From Kondoa subrosea (Eukaryota), in assembly GCA_039545335.1 (NCBI GenBank), contig BCIN01000003.1, positions 1,623,941-1,687,940 of the forward strand: a DNA stretch of 64,000 nt, in the 5' to 3' direction. A program made the translations under genes and the position numbers. Shown piece by piece: positions 9,248 through 48,922 of this stretch. The stretch's first letter is position 1, and each line of letters begins with the position of its first letter. Below the pieces are notes generated by a model, which saw nothing but the letters and a program-made list of their open reading frames with translations, did not search any database and was not told the origin of the DNA.

Positions 9248-9574
9248 AGCAGCATCAAATCGCGTAGTTGTCAATGGAGGAGAGCAGACTTAGCGCATGA
9301 TCAAGCGGACATGGAAGCCTATGTATAGTGATCCCAAATGTGATGCCGAGCAGTGTTTTCAAAAGATCGCCCACTCTCGACCCCTCCAATCAATAATTCG
9401 ATTTTTCCCACCAAAGAGCGATTTCTTTCCTCTGCATCGACCTTCTATTTCTCTGTTCCTCAGCTTTGGTACTTGCACCCTCACACGGCTCTTCAGCCAC
9501 TCACAAGCTTCTTCAAGCACCTACATCCGTTTACCTAATCAACAAAACTCCATTTTGCGCGATCAAAACAAATA

Positions 9575-12500
9575 ATGCGCATTACTGCTCTTTGCCTGTT
9601 TCTTGGGCTGGGTCTCACTTCAACTCAAGCTAAATCTTCTCGCAGCAAGACTGGCCGCAAGGAGCAGCCAGCTAAACTAAAACTCCAAGATCCATTCTCC
9701 GAAACCAATTCACTGGTACCGAATGCTTGGATCGTGGAACTGGATGCAGCGGAAGATTTACCCCGAATAGCTCGGAGAGGCCATTCAGGACATATCAAGA
9801 GGGATCTGGAATCAATTGTTCATTCCCACACAGTTCCGTATTTATGCCAAGAACTGATTGAGAGATGTAGGCACATAATAAATTATACTCCTTCTTGGAT
9901 CACAAACATGCTCAGTATGATGTTCGACATGAATTCAATGAGAAGCCTTCGATCTTTTACGGCACTTCAATTACGCTGAATGATACAGCTCAACTGGATG
10001 CAATTCGAGCAATGCCTGTTGTCAAGGTTCGCTTGAGCGAATGGTTGCAGGTAATTCGTAAGCTGACGAAAAGTCTCACAGAATGTTTGGCCAGTCGAAC
10101 AATATATTCATCCTGAATATCAGATCTCAGAGCGCCAGCAAAAGCAAAAACGAAGCTTGGAGGAAAGAGCGACTCGCGAAGTCTATCGTGAGTGTTCCTC
10201 TGAACTCTTTACGGCCGCTGATTCTCTGGACGTATTAGCACCCCATGATCAGCTTGGCATCAACAAGGTGCGAAGGAGTGAGGCCGAATGTTGTTCAACT
10301 AATCCTGTTGTAGTTGCAAGCGCAAGGCCTTAAAGGTCAAGGAATCAAGATTGGTATCGTTGACTATGGTGTAGATTATTTACACCCGGCACTAGGTGGT
10401 TGCTACGGCGCAGGGTGTAAAGTTGCATTTGGTCAGTACTGCTTATTTGTTTTTCTGTTTGGCTCACCCGTCCGATTGCTCTGTTACCAGGCTACGATTT
10501 CGTAGACAACAGTATGCTAATCTGTTCGCTCACAAGTCTATAGCTAAGGAGGATGTCAATAGAAAATGATCCTTATCAAGATTGCCCTGCAGCTTCTCAC
10601 GGCACATTTGTTGCTGGCATTATAGGCGCAAATGCCAATGCGACAGGTATGATCGGTGTAGCGCCTGAGGTGCGTCTAAGAAGTAGCTATCCACGCCTCC
10701 AGCATTCATTGACACTTTGATCTAGGCAACTCTTGGCGGTAAATCAGATTCCACTCCGAGATTCGGCCACTGTCGCTGATACAAAGCCAGCGTATCGTAT
10801 ATTCGATTGTAACGGCAGAACAACGAACGTCCTTACTATCCAAGCTCTTTTGCGGGCTGCGGCAGATAATGTCGATGTCATCAACTACTCAGGCGGATCT
10901 TCGGCTGCTTGGACATCTACTGCTGTGTCTGTTGTCGTCGATCGGATTACAGCGCAAGGCACAGTTGTTGTCGTGAGTTCTCTTAAAAGCTAATTCATAG
11001 CTCTCATGCTGAACACGTCTCAGGTATCTGCGAGCGATTATGGGAATCAAGGTCTGTGTTTCATGAAGGGCGCGCCCAGTTGCTCAAGATATTCCAGGCC
11101 AGTTTTATAATGATCAGTAAGCAGCCGCTGAATGTGCGTCACTTTGAACTCACTGCTGCTTTCAGGCCAGCTGTATCCAAGACAGCTCTCTCGGTCGGAT
11201 CTGTCGGTCCGCAGTAAGGGTCTCCCTCCTCAGTAGCAAGTTTGGCCTAAGCTAGCATTTCAGGAAATTGGTCCAATTCACAGCCACAATTGTCCAGAAT
11301 GGCCGAGAACTCGTCAGTATTCAGCTCTCAGCCAATTCGCAATGTAATAGCTTTTTACAGCGTTTTTACGGTTCTCATGCCTTTGTTCCGCGGCGGCTGA
11401 ATCTGTTCGTGCTGACTCGGAACACGAAGTCTGAGAATGATGGCTGCGAACCTTTCCCTGCCACTACGCCGGATCTGAGTGGATCAGTCGCGATCATTCG
11501 GCGCGTAAGTGATATGTGTGACAGTCGCAATGCACGGCTTGATGAACCGTCGATAGGGTGGATGTGCCATTGCGGACAAGCTGCTCAATGCTGCTAAATT
11601 CAACGTGAGGACACGATCTTCTTCGTCTGTTCGTGATTTGATCCATTCTCTTTCCAGGCTGCCGGTGTTTTAAGTGAGTTATGCTGTTTTACCTGGATCG
11701 TCGACGCTGAACTGTGCAAAAGTCTACAACCAGCCCGGCGATTCCTTCTTATACGAAGATGGTACCTATGACGGCTTCACAAGCGGTGACGCTGGTCTGC
11801 TTTCAGCAGAAGATGGCGAATATGTTGGTGCCTCTTTATTTCCCGTGATGGCGCTGACCTTGCTTGACAGCTCGTGTTCCGTATAAATCAAGGCTGGGGA
11901 GGCACGCTAGTCTTCAACGATCCTTTGGTGACCACCCCAAATCCGACCTCAGCGGGTCAATTGAGGTACATTTCAAGTCACTTCGCGAACCCAACTGACA
12001 TCTGCGTACTTTACAGCGAGATTCTGGGCGTAGATTTCAGCTCCTACGGGCCTACTTATGATATGTATCCCGTGCCAAAGCTTCTAGCTCCTGGAGGTAA
12101 GATCTTTTTGCTTGTCCGCGCTCTGTTTGCTGCCTATCATCTAGAAAATATCTTGTCAACCTTCCCGCGCAACCTTGGTTACTATTCAGTTCTATCTGGC
12201 ACGTCTTTTGCAACTCCGTTTGTGACTGTCCGTTGGCTTCGCGTACTCCTTTCGTCAGGACTGAGTATTCTTGTAGGGGGCTGTGGCGCTTTATATACAG
12301 CAAGCTAGAGCTTCGCAAGCCAATATCACTCCCGCAGTCATCGGCAACGCCTTCACATCTACAGCCAAGCCTGTGGCTTCTGGCTCTGATCTTGTTACCG
12401 TTTCGCGTCAAGGCGGAGGAATCATGGACGCCTACACAGCTGTTACCGCTAAATCGACTGTGGATAGTTCATTCCTTCTGCTCAACGATACAAGATACTT

Positions 12501-13556
12501 TCAGAAGTCTCAAACCATAAGACGTGAGAGCTGATAGCAACATTAGTGCTTCTGTCTGAAGCATGATCTTTAGTGACGAATGGTGGTTCCAAGCTGGTCT
12601 CATATACAGTTTCTCATGTTCCTGCTTTGACCAGTCTTCCATTTCAAGCAGTGCGTTCTCGCTGTACTCCAAGCGGTAAAACTCTCATTTCTGCTTGCAG
12701 GGGTCTTTCTATCCCTTGGAAACCCCTGGTACATCGCAAAGTGCCGGACAAGCTAGTTTCAAGTATCCTTATCTACAACTGGGTGCTGGTCAAACGCTGG
12801 CTATCCCTCTTACCTTTTCGCCTCCAAGTGGTCTTCAAGCTTCGACTTTCCCAATTTACTCTGGATACATCCAGATTGACTCATCGGAGAATGTTACATT
12901 CACCGTTCCATATCTTGGAATGGCGGCGGCAATGTATGACATGCAAGTCATCGATACCGGTTCAGCTGTTGCGGGTGCGACTCTTCCGCTCATAGCAGAC
13001 AGCAATCTCAACATTCAGACTGGTCCTCATACATACACATTCACCGGATCTGACTATCCCAATATATTCTTGAGACTTGTTGGTAAGTTACAATTTTGGC
13101 GTCAGACGATCAAGACTGATCATTCCAAGCTGGCACACCTCAATTGCTGCTCGAAGTAATCAGTTTACCTCAAGGAGAAGCAGGCAGTCGCAATACACCT
13201 CCACCTGTCCTATTAGGCACTTATGTTACAGCGGTTTATGTGGCCCGGAATCCTTCCAGTCGACCGGCTTTCCCAACTGATGTCATAACACAACAACTCA
13301 GATGGGACGGCACTGTCAATAACGGTTCTAGCACGATCAAATTAGCTAACGGTTCTTATCAATTGCGTTTGCGGTAGGTTGCTTTCGCTGTACTTCATCG
13401 ACATTCTCAATATGCTCTTTCTAGTGCTCTCAAAATGACTGGCGATCCTGCTAACGCTTCTGACTATGAGTGAGTGCAAGTGAGCACTCTCCTATTCTAG
13501 ACTGATGCGCATTTCGCAGATCATGGACATCCCCCATCATCACAATATCTCGCTAG
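9575..13556 (+). CDS. Secreted subtilisin-like S8 peptidase (signal peptide, I9-like prodomain, PA insert, Fn3-like C-terminus)
   Basis: Signal MRITALCLFLGLGLTSTQA; triad motifs IGIVDYGVDYLHPALGG, SHGTFVAG and SGTSFATP; QGGGIMD; more than 20 short introns. Confidence 0.9.
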
Positions 13557-14318
13557 ACCAAATTGTTACGTAGGGGCATTGTGCAGAGGTCATTCGAGAT
13601 TCTTGTATACATTTAGCATTGCTGTGATAGGTTTATGGGATTTTCATGTGCCTTGGCCTGGCGGATCGAGGAACAGCATTTTCCCCTCATCCCGACTCAC
13701 GTCTTCGCATCATAGCAGGGTTATGATTGTTGGATCTGGTGTACACCGAGGCAGTGAGGAACCCAGAGAGAGTTAAGTCCAGATTTTGACAGCTTTTAAC
13801 AATGTGCTCAAATTTGCTCGCCCGATCCGACTCGGTCCTTTGACTCCTTTGGCTTGTCTCCGTGTCTTCTTTTCCTCTCACCTATATCCTTGCCTACTTG
13901 ACTGCCCTTTGCATCGTCATTTGCTTGTCTCTCCAAAGCTGTTTCTCGGATAATATCTCGCTTGAACCTACCTTTTGGGGCTTGAGTTGTACCTCGCCTC
14001 TTGCTCTTCCGCATCTTGAGCGCTCACGTCTGATTTGCGCACAACTGCTCGTACTTGCAGCAGTCACTCATATAAACCGTTACAAACTCGCGACTCTGGT
14101 TAGTGATTTTCTACGCCATGAAATCTCAGAACGCCCGGAGCGGCAATAGCTGACGCGATGACGCCTGCTTGAATGTTAATAGGGTTGGCGTTGACGGCAG
14201 CCTCTATCCCGGATCAGAATCTCTTCCGCCAACACCTTCGAACTTCATCTCTTCTTCTTTTCCACCAACTTATCACGACATCACGAGCCACTCCTTTACG
14301 AACTTTTAACGAACAGCT

Positions 14319-14935
14319 ATGAAGTTCTTCACCATCTTCGCCGTTATGGCCGTTGCCTCAGTTTCCGCCATGCCTGCACCAAATGCTGAAAACGCTTTGG
14401 CTGAGCGTCAGTTTGGCGGTGGTGACGGAGGGGACCAAGCTACTGCTACCGCAAACGGAGCCCGCCCATGGAGAGCGTGGAAGAAAGACGTGAGTTTAAC
14501 TGATTCTCTTGCTCANNNNNNNNNNNNNNNNNNNNNNNNNNNNNNNNNNNNNNNNNNNNNNNNNNNNNNNNNNNNNNNNNNNNNNNNNNNNNNNNNNNNN
14601 NNNNNNNNNNNNNNNGGTGACGGAGGGGACCAAGCTACTGCTACCGCAAACGGAGCCCGCCCATGGAGAGCGTGGAAGAAAGACGTGAGTTTAACTGATT
14701 CTCTTGCTCAACCTGTGTTAATCTTCGCCCACAGGTCGAAGAGCGTCAATTTGGTGGAGGAGATGGTGGAAGCTCAGCTACCGCTACTGCCAACGGAGCT
14801 CGTCCCTGGAGGGCGTGGAAGAAAGATGTTCGTTTCATCCATTACATCAGGCCAAAGCTAATATCATTCAATCTTAAGGACATTGAAGGCCGTGCCGTAG
14901 AAGCACAGAACATGAGACCTGACAGGCCTTGGTAG
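14319..14935 (+). CDS. Secreted repeat-peptide precursor (KEX2-processed-repeat-protein-like / RiPP-precursor-like)
   Basis: Signal MKFFTIFAVMAVASVSA; spliced product ...LAER-QFGGGDGGDQATATANGARPWRAW-KKD|VEER-QFGGGDGGSSATATANGARPWRAW-KKD|DIEGR-AVEAQNMRPDRPW*; phase-0 introns at 14685-14734 and 14828-14878. Confidence 0.85.
14421..14827 (+). repeat. Tandem exon+intron repeat units of the peptide precursor
   Basis: 14421-14515 is identical to 14616-14710; a synonymously diverged copy lies at 14735-14827. Confidence 0.85.
14516..14615. other. Assembly gap (100 N)
   Basis: Run of N flanked by duplicated sequence. Confidence 1.
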
Positions 14936-15222
14936 ATTATACAGTCAGTCGATCTGCTTCTTGCGTTTCGACCAATTCTCATATTTTCTCAGGCAGTCTC
15001 TGCCTCTGATCAGTTGTCTCGAAACAAGGATAGAAGGGGTCAACGGTGTTCAGGGTGTGTTTATGTCTGTACTCTACGTTCAATTCCTATATAAGAAAAA
15101 AGCACTATCGTTCCTCAGCTATATATATAATGAAATCTCTCTTGTTGTCTTGTTGTACTTCATCGTGTGCCAGTACTTTCTCTTTTATACATCCCTCGAC
15201 CTCTTCTTCCATTTGTCGCTTC

Positions 15223-16159
15223 TTATCTGCTCGGTCTTCTTCGATTGCAGAACCAAGTCCGAACTTGTTTCTCCGTCTAGTCAGAATGCATGAGCGACAT
15301 CTTATCTAGAAGAAGAAGGACTAACCAGACCAGTAGTATTAGCTACCTCTTCTATTTCCTCATAGCTAGGATATTGAACTTTCGCCCACAACTGTTCCAA
15401 TCTCGAGACTTGGAAGCTTGAGAAATTACTCCTGCTTCTACCCCAAGTTACGTTTCTTCTCTGTTGATCTGCATTATTGTTACCAGTCAATTGTTCTTCC
15501 GATGCTCTTTTACTTAATCTTGAAGAATAAGAAGAAGAATCTGGTTCTTGATGAATTGGAGAAAGAGTTGATTCGATAGGTGATTTAAGTGATGGCGGGT
15601 ATGAAGAGTAAGGTGAATAAAGAGGTGAACCATTATCGTATTGATCGAAACTGCTTCTACCAGTTGTAGAACGAGTATTTGCGGAAGAAGCAATCGAGTA
15701 AGCTGAGGGAGAAGGAGGAGGATAGTTGCTATAGGCTGACGAAAGATTGTTGTAAGATGATTGACGAGAGAGCAAAGCGTTTTGAGGGTCCGTTAATGAG
15801 ATCGATCGAGAATAAAGATTATCTTGCATGCTTGATCTGGTCACAGATTGACGCGATTGTGCTTCAAAGGGATAAGATGATATTGGCTCTTCTGCATTTC
15901 CATCAGCTGTTGACCACCTGCGAGAACGAGAAGAAGGATAAGGTGAACTTGACGCGCTTTGGTTGATATAGGCTTGTTCACGTTCGCTTGTCGGAAAGCT
16001 TTGCATAGGAGGTAAAGTAAACTCATCTTTGGATGGAGTATAATCCAGCAGAGATAGCGTACGGAGCGGAGGTAGCTGCATGCGGGGAGGTGCAACAAGT
16101 CTACCGTTGTTTGGAAGAGTCCCGCCGCGCAAGTTGTTTGCAGGAAATGAGTAATTCAT
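15223..16159 (-). CDS. Homeodomain transcription factor (C-terminal non-TALE homeodomain)
   Basis: S/P-rich N-terminus, then RSRSNFSSFQVSRLEQLWAKVQYPSYEEIEEVANTTGL|TEKQVRTWFCNRRRPSR*; intron at 15277-15325. Confidence 0.85.
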
Positions 16160-16805
16160 CGAGGAATAATTTTGGCAAGATTGATGAGGACGAGGTAGTT
16201 TAAAAACAAAAATCAGAGATTAGTTGAGCGCAATGCACAGAGCTGCTACCATGCAATTAACGGGAACGAGGCCTATGTGAGTAGAATAATATGAACTTTT
16301 GGCTACCACGGTAACGATCGAATGCATGAGAAGAGGGTCCAATAAAGTTCATGAATGACAGTGAATGTCACTTTTGGAAGCAGACTAGAAGGGTCTTGTC
16401 TTGCCAAGTGGTGCATGGCCCTTGTATCGATGCACCTTCCTGCATGGAAACTGTAATAGAAAGCGCCTATAGCAATCATCCGTTGACTAATTACAGCAAG
16501 ACAGTAGCGGAAGCTGTCAGTCAGCTGCCCGAGGAGGTGTTACCACGGAGTCAGGGTAAATTAAGAGAAGGCAAGACATTTGTCGAATGCACGGTGCAAG
16601 ACGTCGAAGGAATGTGTCCTGCCATAGACTAGCAGGTGGACATATCTTGCAACGGCCACATGCAATTGTCCACAGTCGATTACCTTACAGGGCACATCGT
16701 AGGCACAGGTCAAGAAAAATGTTAGGAAGCTATTTTGGAGAGCATCAGTCGACCAAAGCAACCTGCAAGACCTGCACTTCATAAGACTACTGCAAGGGAA
16801 TCAGT

Positions 16806-44109: not shown

Positions 44110-47100
44110 ATGACTGATGAATTGAGTGATTTCCAGATCTACTTGAACTCGCATGCGATGCCCCTAGAAGAAAGCAGACGACCTTCAATACAATCAGCCT
44201 TTAGCGGAGACAGCGTCTTCTCATACAACAGCTCTATATCTACTCCTGCTACTTCTGTAGCCAGTAATCTCAATTCACCCCTCTCTCCTTGCTTTCCAAT
44301 GGATTCTATTCATGGCAATATGAACAGGACATTCCCAACTCACATCCTTGGTCTCCTAACTGCTCTCGAGTCTGATCCAACCTCTGCAGCTTCGGCGTTT
44401 CGGTCTCAAGACGTGTCTTCAATGTTTACAACTTCAGCAGGCAAATCTGACCGACCGGTAGAAACAGAAGCCATTCACGCAGCATTGGCTCGAATTGCTG
44501 ATCGTTTAGCAAGAGCTGAAGCTATTCCTGTTCAACGACCTTCCGCTGCAAGAAGAAGTTCTTCAAGTTCTTCTCAAGTCTCGCAACCTTCTCAAAGCTA
44601 CATTTCTCCCAGCCCCGTTCTCAGCTCTCGCGCCTTCAGTGGTCTTGTTGGTATCAATGATTCTTCATCATCACCTCCACAAGCAGCTACTATTACTGAA
44701 GATGCGGACGCGGAAGAAGCTGCTGATCGTCCTTCAGCTGAAGAAGAATTAGGTCAACTAAGAGCGCAGGTGCAGGATTTCGCCAGAGTTTGCAAGGTGA
44801 TTCCTTCATCATGCGTCCCCTGAAGCAATGTGTCTGACTTGTTCTTGACCAGGCCGTCGCTTTGGGTGATTTGACTCAAAGAGTTGAAGTTACCGTACAA
44901 AGTCAAGATTTGGTTGAACTCAAGGACGTCATCAACGGAATGGTCACTAATCTTCGAGTCTTTGCTTATGAAGTGTCTAAGATCAGTCGAGAAGTCGGAA
45001 CGGAAGGGTGAGTGGAAGTGGCATTCAGCAAGTTTTCATGTTAAACATGCCCTTGCAACTGCAGCGTACTTGGCGGCCAAGCAATCGTCGAAGGCGTCGA
45101 AGGAACTTGGAGAACATTGACTGCTGATGTGAACAAGCTCGCAGGCAATCTCACTACTCAAGTACGATCTATCGCTGCTGTTACCAAAGCAGGTATGTTG
45201 CAGTAGTACGGGCACTGATTGACAAGCGCTAATCATGTTTTCAGTCGCTGCTGGTGATCTCTCGCGCAAGATTGAAGTTGAAGCAGAAGGTGAAATCAAA
45301 GAACTCAAAGTCACAATCAATACTATGGTGGATCAACTTCGTACATTTGCTGAAGAAGTCACTCGCGTTGCTTTGGCTGTAGGTACTGAAGGTATTCTTG
45401 GTGGTCAAGCTCGCGTTCCCGGAGTCAGCGGAACTTGGAAGACTTTAACAGACACGGTCAATCAGGTCAGTGCTAGGTGCTCTACAGTCTCCTCAAGATG
45501 ACTTACGTGTAGTTTTTACGGACTGACAGATGGCTTCCAACTTGACAACACAAGTTAGAGGTATTGCAACTGTTACTCGAGCGATTTCAAGAGGAGACTT
45601 GATGCAGGTCATCGATGTCGACGCGAAAGGTGAAATCTTAGGCCTAAAGACTACTGTCAACAGCATGTGAGCTTCCTTTCCTTGTTCTGTACGAGCAAAG
45701 CTGAACGAGACTTAGGGTGGAACAACTTCGAATTTTCGCAGCTGAAGTAACGAGAGTAGCGAACGAAGTCGGAACAGAAGGTCAACTTGGTGGACAAGCT
45801 TGCGTACCTCAAGTCGAAGGAACTTGGGCCGTGCTTACCGATACTGCAAGTCTAATATCCCCTTTGCGTGATTCTATTGCTAATGAGGCTTTGTAGGTCA
45901 ACGCTATGGCTCAGAACTTGACAGTATGTAATCTCTCACCTTGTGGCAACACTTTGCTCATCTTTGTTGGTAGAATCAAGTTCGATCTATTGCAGCTGTC
46001 ACTACCGCTGTAGCCGAGGGCGATTTGTCACAAAAGATTGAAGTCGCCGCAAAGGGAGAAATCTATCAACTCAAGACCACAGTCAATGGAATGGTCGACT
46101 TCTTGCGCCAATTCTCTGGCGAAGTTACTCGAGTCGCTGTCGCTACTGGTACAAATGGTATTCTCGGTCAAGTCGCCAACGTCGATGGGGTCAAAGGCGA
46201 ATGGAGGAATCTCACTGATAGCGTCAATACCATGTCTAGTCAAATCACATTGCAAGTTCGAAGCATCGCAATCGCAACTGTATGTCCATTATTCATTCGC
46301 TCTCAAAGCAATACTGACGTTTATTGCAGACTGCTGTAGCGAAAGGTGACCTTACGCAAAAGGTGCAAATCGAAGCTGCTGGAGAAATGCGTCAACTCTC
46401 GACTACCATTAATGATATGATTGATAGAGTCAGTTTACCTTTGCTAATCTTTCTCATGTTATTCATCTATCCAACAGTTGAGCTTGTTCGCCGCTGAAGT
46501 CACCAATGTTGCACGAGAAGTCGGAACCAGAGGCAATCTGGGTGTCGTCGCCAAGGTCGATGATATCGATGGAACTTGGCAAGAGATCACCAACAATGTC
46601 AACACCATGGTTAGTGCGATCAGGCAGAAGTGGTGCATACACTGACTTGTCTATCAGGCTCTCAATCTGACATCTCAAGTCAGAGCTTTCGCTCAAATTT
46701 CAGCAGCAGCAACTGCTGGTGATTTCAGTTCTTTTGTCACTGTCGAAGCCAGTGGTGAGATGAACTCACTCAAGACCAAGGTATGGTATACCGTGAAAAT
46801 TTCAACCTAGTGCTGATTCTGTATCTCAGATCAATGACATGGTCTATTCGCTCAGAGGTTTGTCTTTTGCCTCAACTATTGCCAACTTATACTCAACTTG
46901 TGCGACAGAATCACTACAGAAGAATACTGCAGCACGAGAGGCTGCTGAAATGGCTAATAGAAGTAAGAGCGAGTTCTTAGCAAACATGTCCCACGAGATC
47001 CGGTAAATTCGATCGCCTGCATCTACAAGTTCTGTTTACTAATAATGACCACGACAGAACACCTATGAACGGTATCATCGGCATGACAGCTGTTACTCTT

Positions 47101-48922
47101 GAAACTGAATTAACTCGAGCTCAACGCGAAAACTTAATGATCGTCTCAACTTTAGCTAATTCGCTGCTGCTCATCATCGACGATATTCTCGATATCTCCA
47201 AGAGTAGGTCTGCCGTCAAGTGCTTTACTTTCGCAGCTAAGGGCACTTTACAGTCGAGGCTGGTCGCATGAATATGGAAGAAATCCCCTTCTCTATGCGC
47301 TCAACTGTATTCGGTGTTCTCAAGACGCTGGCTGTCAAAGCTTCACAAAGCAAACTTGACTTGCTTTATCGAATGGATGATTCCGTGGTCGACTTCCTCA
47401 TTGGTGATCCTTATCGCCTTCGTCAAGTCATTACAAATCTGGTCGGTAATGCCATCAAATTCACTCAACATGGATGTGTCGCTCTCTCTTGCAGACTAGC
47501 CGAATACGATGAGGAAACGGAAATTAGCACTCTCGAATTCTGTGTGGCAGACACTGGTATCGGTATCAAGCCAGACAAGCTCAACCTCATCTTCGATACC
47601 TTCTGTCAAGCAGATGGCTCAACCACGAGGGTAAGTGCTAGCTTTCTCATAGATGAATTTCGCTGACATACATGGCAGAAATATGGTGGAACTGGTCTTG
47701 GACTGACGATCTCTAAGCGACTGGTTGGCTTGATGGGCGGTGATCTGTGGGTTAAGAGTGAATACGGTCAAGGTTCTCAATTCTACTTTACAACTCGAAC
47801 CAAAGCAGCGCCCTGGACCGTCGAACATGTTCGAGCCAAGATGAATGCAGCTCATCTGGGTCGTCGCATTTTGATCATCGATACTCAAGGAGCGGCAGAA
47901 GAGACAGCGCCAGCCGTCAAAGATGTTGGTCTAGATGTTACTGTCGTCAAATCGATCGAAGAAGCATGCCAGCAGCAAGCTCTCGGCGCCCTCTTCAACA
48001 CAGTCCTGGTCGACCAGCTATCTGTCGTCGAAGCTATGCGTGATGTCGACTACCTTCGATATATTCCCTTGGTTCTTGTTGCGCATAATATTCCTCAACT
48101 TAACCTCAAATACTGTTTGGACTTTGGTATCGCCAATTGTGTTGAACCTCCTTCGAATGCTCAAGACATGTGCAATGCTTTGATTCCTGCTCTTGAAACA
48201 AGCAATCGAAATGCATCGGACAATAACGGCGAGGTTGCGTTCAAGGTCTTGGTTGCGGAAGATAGTAAGTCTCTTATTCATCAACCCCAGCTCAAGCTTA
48301 TCGCTTCGCACAGATGTGGTCAATCAAAAAGTCGCTCTGAAGTTCTTGGAAAGCTGTGGGCATAGAGTTGAAATCGTCGAGAACGGTGCCTTGGCGATAG
48401 AAGCATTCAAGACCAAATCATACGATGTTATTCTTATGGATGTGGTACGTTCCTTTGTTCCATTTGTCTGCCTCGACTAATGTGCTTCTTAGTCTATGCC
48501 TGTCATGTCAGGAATAGAAGCTACAGCTCGCATCAGAGAGTATGAACATGAAGGCTCATGGCAGCCAATTCCTATCATCGCCCTGACCGCTCATGGTGTG
48601 TTGAAAGCTTCAATGTTGTCATCTCTGCTGATGAGGGATTGCAGCCATGCTTGGCGACAGAGAAAGGTGTTTACAAGCTGGCATGACTGACTATGTAAGT
48701 AATCTTCAAAGGAACGGGCTAGATACTAAGACTCTTTATTTTCAGCTTGTCAAACCACTACGCAAAGCAGATCTGGCAGCAATGTTGAAAGGTATTTCTG
48801 CTATCCGGGAACGCCTTATGAGTGCTAATCATATCATATCCATAGATGTGGTCACGGGAAGACGAAGCATCGCTCTCAAACCACGCAATCCACAAGAGTC
48901 TGGTGCTGGCTCAGGTGAGTGA
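44110..48922 (+). CDS. NIK1: Group III hybrid histidine kinase (Nik1/Os-1 type; poly-HAMP, HisKA, HATPase, REC)
   Basis: About six HAMP units (GDLxxKIEV...EVTRVA.EVGTEG); [32 protein letters not shown] and DVILMDV-MPVMSG. Confidence 0.95.

Follow-up and report, generated by a model that had tools for sequence, protein, structure and literature searches.

A gene for a secreted, multi-copy peptide precursor was recognized at positions 14319–14935 of a 64,000-nucleotide stretch of Kondoa subrosea DNA (contig BCIN01000003.1; hereafter the window), and by its predicted layout the product is a Kex2-processed repeat protein (KEP) with tryptophan-ended cores, most likely four long cores and one terminal core. 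The precursor class is known, and these particular peptides appear to be new. The best reading, to which we give about an even chance, is that the precursor would be cut by a Kex2-type protease into linear secreted signal peptides. Judged from its sequence, the locus is a genuine fungal gene that is split by introns, and its secreted product would be short and disordered. An earlier note on this DNA had described a spliced gene with a signal peptide and a pro-region, and the ATG, the stop codon, the GT–AG introns and the hydrophobic leader were all confirmed.

The gene was read from an ATG at 14319 to a TAG stop at 14933–14935, and all of its parts given below lie on the forward strand. A conserved upstream block (14075–14098), probably part of the 5′ untranslated leader, aligns to bases 32–56 of a homologue from another species (L001, described below). 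It is followed by a candidate leader intron (14099–14182), recognized from its GT...AG ends and a branch-like GCTGAC at 14149–14154, which is mostly absent from L001; its acceptor is uncertain, the final TTAATAG being retained in L001. The first coding exon (14319–14489) holds the hydrophobic leader, a pro-region with LAER at its end, core A and KKD. The putative signal peptide occupies 17 codons (14319–14369), with a predicted cut after VSA placed by eye, and was assigned from hydropathy and conservation in L001; the 9-residue Kyte–Doolittle mean reached 2.5, and by hydropathy only the hydrophobic stretch covers residues 3–17 in both proteins. Over the first 20 codons, the comparison with L001 gave a pN/pS of 0.25. 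The pro-region (14370–14408) ends in LAER, an aliphatic-x-x-Arg site, and the run AENALAERQFG recurs unchanged in L001, where 5 of the 11 codons differ silently. Long core A (24 residues, from Gln to Trp) and its KKD, conserved in L001, close the exon (14409–14489). The sequence then enters a first copy of intron A (14490–14515), which reaches an assembly gap. Beyond the gap, core A recurs in a second copy, of which the 3′ portion and the KKD are present (14616–14684); this stretch is identical to 14421–14489 and has doubled depth.

Two GT–AG introns, both of phase 0 and both after KKD, are complete in the window. Removal of intron A (50 nt, 14685–14734, GTGAGT...CAG) restores the reading frame, and in L001 the KKD joins the xxER spacer directly. 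The following exon (14735–14827) holds VEER, long core B (14747–14818) and KKD, and leads into intron B (51 nt, 14828–14878, GTTCGT...AAG, with a branch-like GCTAAT); an AAG acceptor seems, by eye, to serve the upstream subtilase gene as well, near 13125–13130. The last exon (14879–14935), whose DNA can be aligned with the final spacer and the terminal core of L001, contains DIEGR, the terminal core (AVEA, then QNMRPDRPW from 14906) and the stop codon (AVEAQNMRPDRPW). The probable 3′ untranslated region covers 14936–15080, the end of L001 aligning loosely to about 15080. In line with the earlier description, LAER, VEER and IEGR stand before the cores and KKD after the long cores. Intron B is in frame and free of stop codons; a transcript that retained it would have a longer spacer but an unchanged terminal peptide. 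A phase-0 intron after every KKD gives one exon per core, and exon skipping could change the peptide dose.

Two complete long cores of 24 residues each and one terminal core are visible in the window. The two core sequences of the earlier note stood as written, but its count was too low: a 100-N gap (14516–14615) had been missed, and four long cores are implied. The same 95 nt stand on both flanks of the gap (14421–14515 = 14616–14710), and the visible two-core model is therefore incomplete. Read-derived contigs were available from two of two runs (X1 and X2) of a single sample; the assembly itself may derive from that sample, and the contigs are hence not independent of it. The piece 14616–14805 (190 nt) had a depth of 124.9 in X1, against 53.8 and 55.1 for its flanks (ratio 2.3), and of 326.8 in X2, against 143 and 168.3 (ratio 2.1). 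Additionally, a 158-nt loop contig of single-copy depth (ratios 1.2 and 1.0) joined 14826 back to 14403, with 59 inner letters of deduced sequence between the joins. Both branch points of the loop fall on third codon positions, and it carries 58 nt beyond the completed Asp codon, which is 1 modulo 3, so that a further intron is required in the hidden part if the frame is to be maintained. The length of this hidden intron is itself expected to be 1 modulo 3, at 49 or 52 nt. The simplest path would pass the 190-nt piece twice and add 288 nt (two more long cores and two introns), and contig depth and the loop together suggest that the gap stands in place of this further 288-nt unit. The cores would then follow in the order A, B′, A′, B and terminal, with about 168 residues in all. 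A plain overlap of a single copy at the gap was rejected by the depth and the loop contig. Two repeat layers are seen at 14421–14805: the A and B copies are old, with silent sites close to saturation, and the 190-nt stretch was doubled recently and exactly, intron included.

The two visible copies were compared over 29 codons, of which 12 were identical, 15 differed synonymously and 2 non-synonymously (pS 0.74, pN 0.06, pN/pS 0.08, Fisher p 1.7e-9); the earlier statement that the copies differ mostly at synonymous positions was thus borne out. Introns A and B were no more alike than shuffled sequences (348 of 1000 shuffles reached their score). The pattern is one of selection on the peptide rather than of recent DNA duplication. 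Similarly, the long copies of L001 differ among themselves by 4–11 silent and 0–1 replacement changes, and the last 11 residues of the long core in the window equal those of all four long cores of L001, with 3–5 silent changes per copy. These comparisons point to strong purifying selection, both between copies and between species. That no functional gene exists here, and that an assembly artefact or a chance repeat had been read as one, is barely credible: the assembly is indeed broken inside the gene, but the copies have diverged at silent sites, the homologue is intact in another species and the gap is explained by the read-derived contigs.

The homologue was obtained from a metagenome scan of 598 candidate stretches, which gave two loci among the matches listed. 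One of these (L001, Ga0314768_1096092, 1028 nt), from another species, was real and 72% identical to the first exon (tblastn); the other (L002), which lay in an NRPS-like frame, matched by chance and was discarded. L001 has a single uninterrupted frame of 236 codons, in the order signal peptide, four 22-residue long cores, four cores of QRSHPW and, just before the stop, a terminal QGNDRSHPW. Its long cores start with QFG and end with GARPWRAW followed by KKD; all nine cores start with Gln directly after aliphatic-x-x-Arg, all eight internal cores end in Trp-KKD and the last in Trp-stop. Sequence is missing from L001 exactly at the introns of the window gene, as is most of the candidate 5′ leader intron, and L001 ends close to the likely 3′ end of the window gene. 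It looks like a whole spliced transcript, although an intron-free gene is possible instead. The splice model and the cut sites are supported in either case, because L001 joins KKD directly to the next spacer, and splicing in Kondoa subrosea is predicted on this basis. Between the two species the head is invariant and the Gly/Ala/Thr linker is conserved in part. The terminal 13-mer that had been described as keeping RPW was confirmed in sequence, but not in register: in the C-terminal alignment, RPDRPW would be placed with RPWRAW and with RSHPW, and the terminal product may be a 9-mer starting from Gln. The four short cores of L001 (bases 610–900), with doubled xxEER spacers, are without counterpart in the window gene; core number and type thus vary between the species while the long head does not. 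Residues 146–201 of the L001 protein (P0004), which hold the short QRSHPW units, resembled the thyrotropin-releasing hormone precursor family (PF05438, E 0.016, below the cut-off), a likeness that is probably a convergence of layout.

Further relatives were sought widely, and L001 remained the only homologue among the matches listed. The first exon matched none of 357 longer candidate proteins at E up to 10, proteins of near length gave no candidates, and the L001 protein matched none of 2251 at E up to 1, an exact look-up also finding it absent. A library of 1.84 billion representative proteins gave three matches, all to unrelated repeat proteins, and the gene was not found in a set of 5.8 billion proteins. 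No match was obtained in the PDB or among viral contigs (0 of 1), and a Pfam hit to PF10917 (E 0.0017) fell below the cut-off. The best ESM Atlas scores, 0.81 and 0.88, are leads only. Among prokaryote genomes, one match of 65 covered the signal peptide only and was dropped. Four core motifs were not found in print by full-text search, which led only to a paper listed as dealing with plant readthrough; a search by topic gave nothing on the family, and no such core was found in the supplements of the KEP catalogues, a weak test since the Umemura table gives accessions without sequences and the Le Marquer peptide table was not covered as text. The earlier remark that the core was not recognized from any named peptide agrees with the databases and literature searched, and the peptide family appears to be undescribed.

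By layout, the precursor falls among the KEPs, which share with it a signal peptide, at least three near-identical short cores and basic cut sites (PMC6339444, PMC7329392); at least three repeated cores are counted in both species, with four long cores implied plus the terminal one in the window and nine in L001. Two core types per precursor and the lack of any tailoring enzyme found nearby are further common features. In contrast to those KEPs, the window gene has KK on the 3′ side and aliphatic-x-x-Arg on the 5′ side of its cores, zero KR or RR, and one intron after each KKD. KK follows both complete internal cores in the window and 8 of 8 in L001, and in all cores of both proteins the C-terminal Trp stands directly before the dibasic site or the stop. 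When the aliphatic-x-x-Arg and KK rule was applied computationally, cuts fell in the spacers only of both proteins, with zero inside the cores. Since the terminal core ends in Trp-stop in both species, Trp would be the mature C-terminus and the lysines would be removed from the internal cores. The view of a secreted multi-copy KEP-type precursor under protein-level selection, already put forward in the earlier note, is supported by this layout, by the silent divergence and by L001.

The following processing may be proposed. A prepropeptide of about 168 residues would go into the secretory pathway, where a Kex2-type Golgi protease would cleave after every aliphatic-x-x-Arg and at every Lys-Lys, a Kex1-type carboxypeptidase would remove the lysines and each exposed N-terminal Gln would cyclize to pyroglutamate. 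The predicted output is four linear 24-residue peptides with GARPWRAW ends and one shorter peptide with an RPDRPW end, of 13 residues or of 9 if trimmed to Gln. For the pyroglutamyl forms, the calculated monoisotopic masses are 2429.09 (core A), 2360.07 (core B) and 1181.54 (terminal 9-mer); the untrimmed 13-mer would have 1568.75. The invariant Trp-ended head would be the part read by a receptor or importer, and the peptides would act as secreted non-mating signals of cell density or of interaction with other organisms. A ligand for a receptor or importer fits because the head is invariant while the linker is tolerant. We infer every cleavage step and the signalling role. Processing at ER and KK rather than at canonical KR sites had been proposed, and these sites are not new: an expanded Kex2 motif, LxxR, has already been published (PMC8528282), single-Arg cleavage is on record (PMC9769878), and KK is described as a minor Kex2 site (PMC6339444), its minor standing counting against the processing model. 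For mushroom KEPs, mass spectrometry demonstrated single-Arg cleavage, pyroglutamate and linear Trp-ended cores, and the Coprinopsis cinerea precursors in the supplement carry acidic spacers ending in L/V-x-x-R before the cores (PMC9769878); an N-terminal pyroglutamate, which the earlier note had considered, is likely for the present cores. Six KEP gene knockouts in C. cinerea were reported to be without visible phenotype (PMC9769878), so that for KEPs as a class signalling is still to be proven.

The nearest likeness in core ends was seen in the C. cinerea KEPs 490115 (QMRPPSW, QYKAPSW) and 405832 and in the Pleurotus and Lentinula proteins with -AADW (PMC9769878). Like the window cores, these are Trp-ended, with Gln starts (pyroglutamate by mass spectrometry in 490115), Trp before the dibasic site, a last core that ends in Trp-stop and a first core after a single Arg. 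Unlike them, the long cores described here have 22–24 residues, and Ste13 dipeptides, present in 490115 and in the Pleurotus proteins, are absent from the window gene. No significant likeness was obtained with five mushroom KEP peptides in a shuffle test, or between the terminal 9-mer and QMRPPSW (756 and 1196 of 5000 shuffles reached the score). The Ste13 XA/XP signature is absent after the cut sites, where KK is followed by an acidic spacer and Arg by QF, QR or QG; a single EA occurs in the terminal unit of the window only, out of dipeptide register at its start. Ste13 trimming at an internal site, the TATA run, was considered and rejected, the dipeptide register not being kept in L001. An alpha-factor-like mating pheromone, a reading suggested by the Trp that precedes the dibasic site and by the MF_alpha cluster, which ranked fourth by language-model features (0.82; a lead only), is highly improbable: besides the absence of the Ste13 signature, zero Pfam matches to MF_alpha or MF_alpha_N were obtained with the window exons and the L001 protein, and basidiomycetes are described as using prenylated a-type pheromones (PMC9769878, PMC6339444).

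Arg/Trp pairs of the kind found in the head are a pattern of short cationic antimicrobial peptides. With two Arg and two Trp, and with many copies that would give a high output, the head could act on membranes as an antimicrobial or antagonistic peptide, perhaps after trimming of the linker. The side-chain net charge, however, is 0 and +1 for the whole long cores and 0 or +1 for the short cores, near-neutral values that are untypical of cationic antimicrobials. The cationic head of the earlier note holds for the last eight residues, which alone are cationic, but not for the whole long cores. Strict invariance of the head across species fits a specific receptor better than membrane lysis, and synthetic C. 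cinerea KEP peptides of other sequences were inactive on five bacterial strains (PMC9769878). The antimicrobial reading, which the earlier note had raised, is consequently weak in view of the near-neutral cores, and we regard it as unlikely. Less probable still is a role as surface or matrix components, comparable to the Rep1 repellents of Ustilago, rather than as signals. Rep1 is likewise a basidiomycete KEP without the Ste13 signature (PMC6339444), and the partial conservation of the Gly/Ala/Thr linker would agree with such a role, but the cores are short and polar, and the 6-residue cores of L001 could hardly assemble.

A RiPP precursor with oxidatively cross-linked Trp, similar to the dikaritins, was also weighed. 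The layout of dikaritin precursors (ustiloxin, phomopsin, asperipin-2a) is shared with the KEPs and with the window gene (PMC9769878), but the cores lack Tyr, the neighbours are housekeeping genes and zero matches to DUF3328/UstYa or other tailoring enzymes were obtained in the long reading frames scanned in the window. This Pfam scan covered 128 of the 176 stop-free stretches of at least 85 residues, those left out being mainly overlapping alternative frames. A DUF3328 neighbour is itself reported for only 6.1% of basidiomycete KEPs (PMC7329392). For want of DUF3328/UstYa in those frames and of Tyr in the cores, the cross-linked product considered in the earlier note is weakly founded and very unlikely.

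The neighbourhood of the gene bears on a further explanation. Directly upstream, on the same strand, lies an intron-rich gene for a secreted S8 subtilase (9539–13500), recognized by Pfam and by catalytic Asp/His/Ser motifs, which ends about 800 nt before the ATG and encodes a candidate maturing protease. Its S8 and Fn3-like domain set is one that we take to be of pyrolysin type; a PDB search with one of its exons gave no match. Downstream, a homeodomain gene on the reverse strand (15302–16219, Pfam E 3.8e-6) is convergent with the peptide gene and has a long Ser/Pro-rich N-terminal part, its homeodomain being encoded last in the open frame. A multi-HAMP histidine kinase (45223–48362, forward strand; HAMP, HisKA and HATPase matches) is an ordinary fungal sensor kinase, and the genes further out are housekeeping genes.

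With a subtilase next door, the long cores could be multi-copy relatives of Qsp1, pro-peptides that would be trimmed outside the cell by the neighbouring enzyme and re-imported by an oligopeptide transporter for action within the cell. The Cryptococcus neoformans Qsp1/Pqp1/Opt1 system, whose pathway is described in PMC7537855 and PMC6571750, resembles the present one in that a pro-peptide is secreted and the peptide starts with [N/Q]FG and carries a GAxPW motif; Qsp1 is matured by an S8 protease, Pqp1 (PMC10040410), of the pyrolysin subfamily (PMC5371821). When the Qsp1 sequence printed in PMC3884061 was aligned with the L001 long core, 8 of 11 residues were identical (NFG with QFG; APGGAYPW with APDGARPW). 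This score was reached by none of 52550 background 11-mers and by none of the 717 that end in Trp, and by 13 (global) or 25 (local) of 20000 Qsp1 shuffles with Trp fixed. The window cores compared weakly with Qsp1 (837–1413 of 20000 shuffles reached the score), the composition is Gly/Ala/Pro-rich on both sides, and the comparison was chosen after the core had been seen. Moreover, Qsp1 is an 11-mer that ends at PW and is matured extracellularly by Pqp1, whereas the window gene has many longer cores of 22–24 residues between Kex2-type sites, with an 8–10 residue insert and three residues (RAW) past PW, and the short cores end in PW but lack the FG start. Zero oligopeptide transporter matches were found in the 128 of 176 frames scanned. 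That Qsp1 has a multi-copy, Kex2-processed relative here, in a yeast lineage far from Cryptococcus and beside its own maturing subtilase, is thus a doubtful proposition, about on a level with the antimicrobial one.

Linear secreted signal peptides from a Kex2-type precursor remain the preferred reading, and the significance of the finding depends in part on the Qsp1 question. The KEP class is large (7878 KEPs in PMC7329392), no function is known for most of the peptides derived from it, and what Trp-ended, alpha-factor-like precursors do in basidiomycetes is treated as an open question in PMC6339444 and PMC9769878. The gene offers a handy test case: it is represented in two species, its head does not vary, the masses of its products are exactly predicted, and the peptides are short enough to be synthesized. 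It is also an example of a gene type missed by protein catalogues. Without a link to Qsp1, it would be one more among thousands of KEPs. To our knowledge, the Qsp1 system of Cryptococcus is the only described fungal peptide quorum-sensing system. If the kinship were true, unexplained basidiomycete Trp-ended KEPs would be quorum-sensing ligands, one precursor would supply ligands of two classes (GARPWRAW for the long, HPW/RPW for the short), and fungal peptide quorum sensing would reach beyond Cryptococcus, as an old and wider trait of basidiomycete yeasts.
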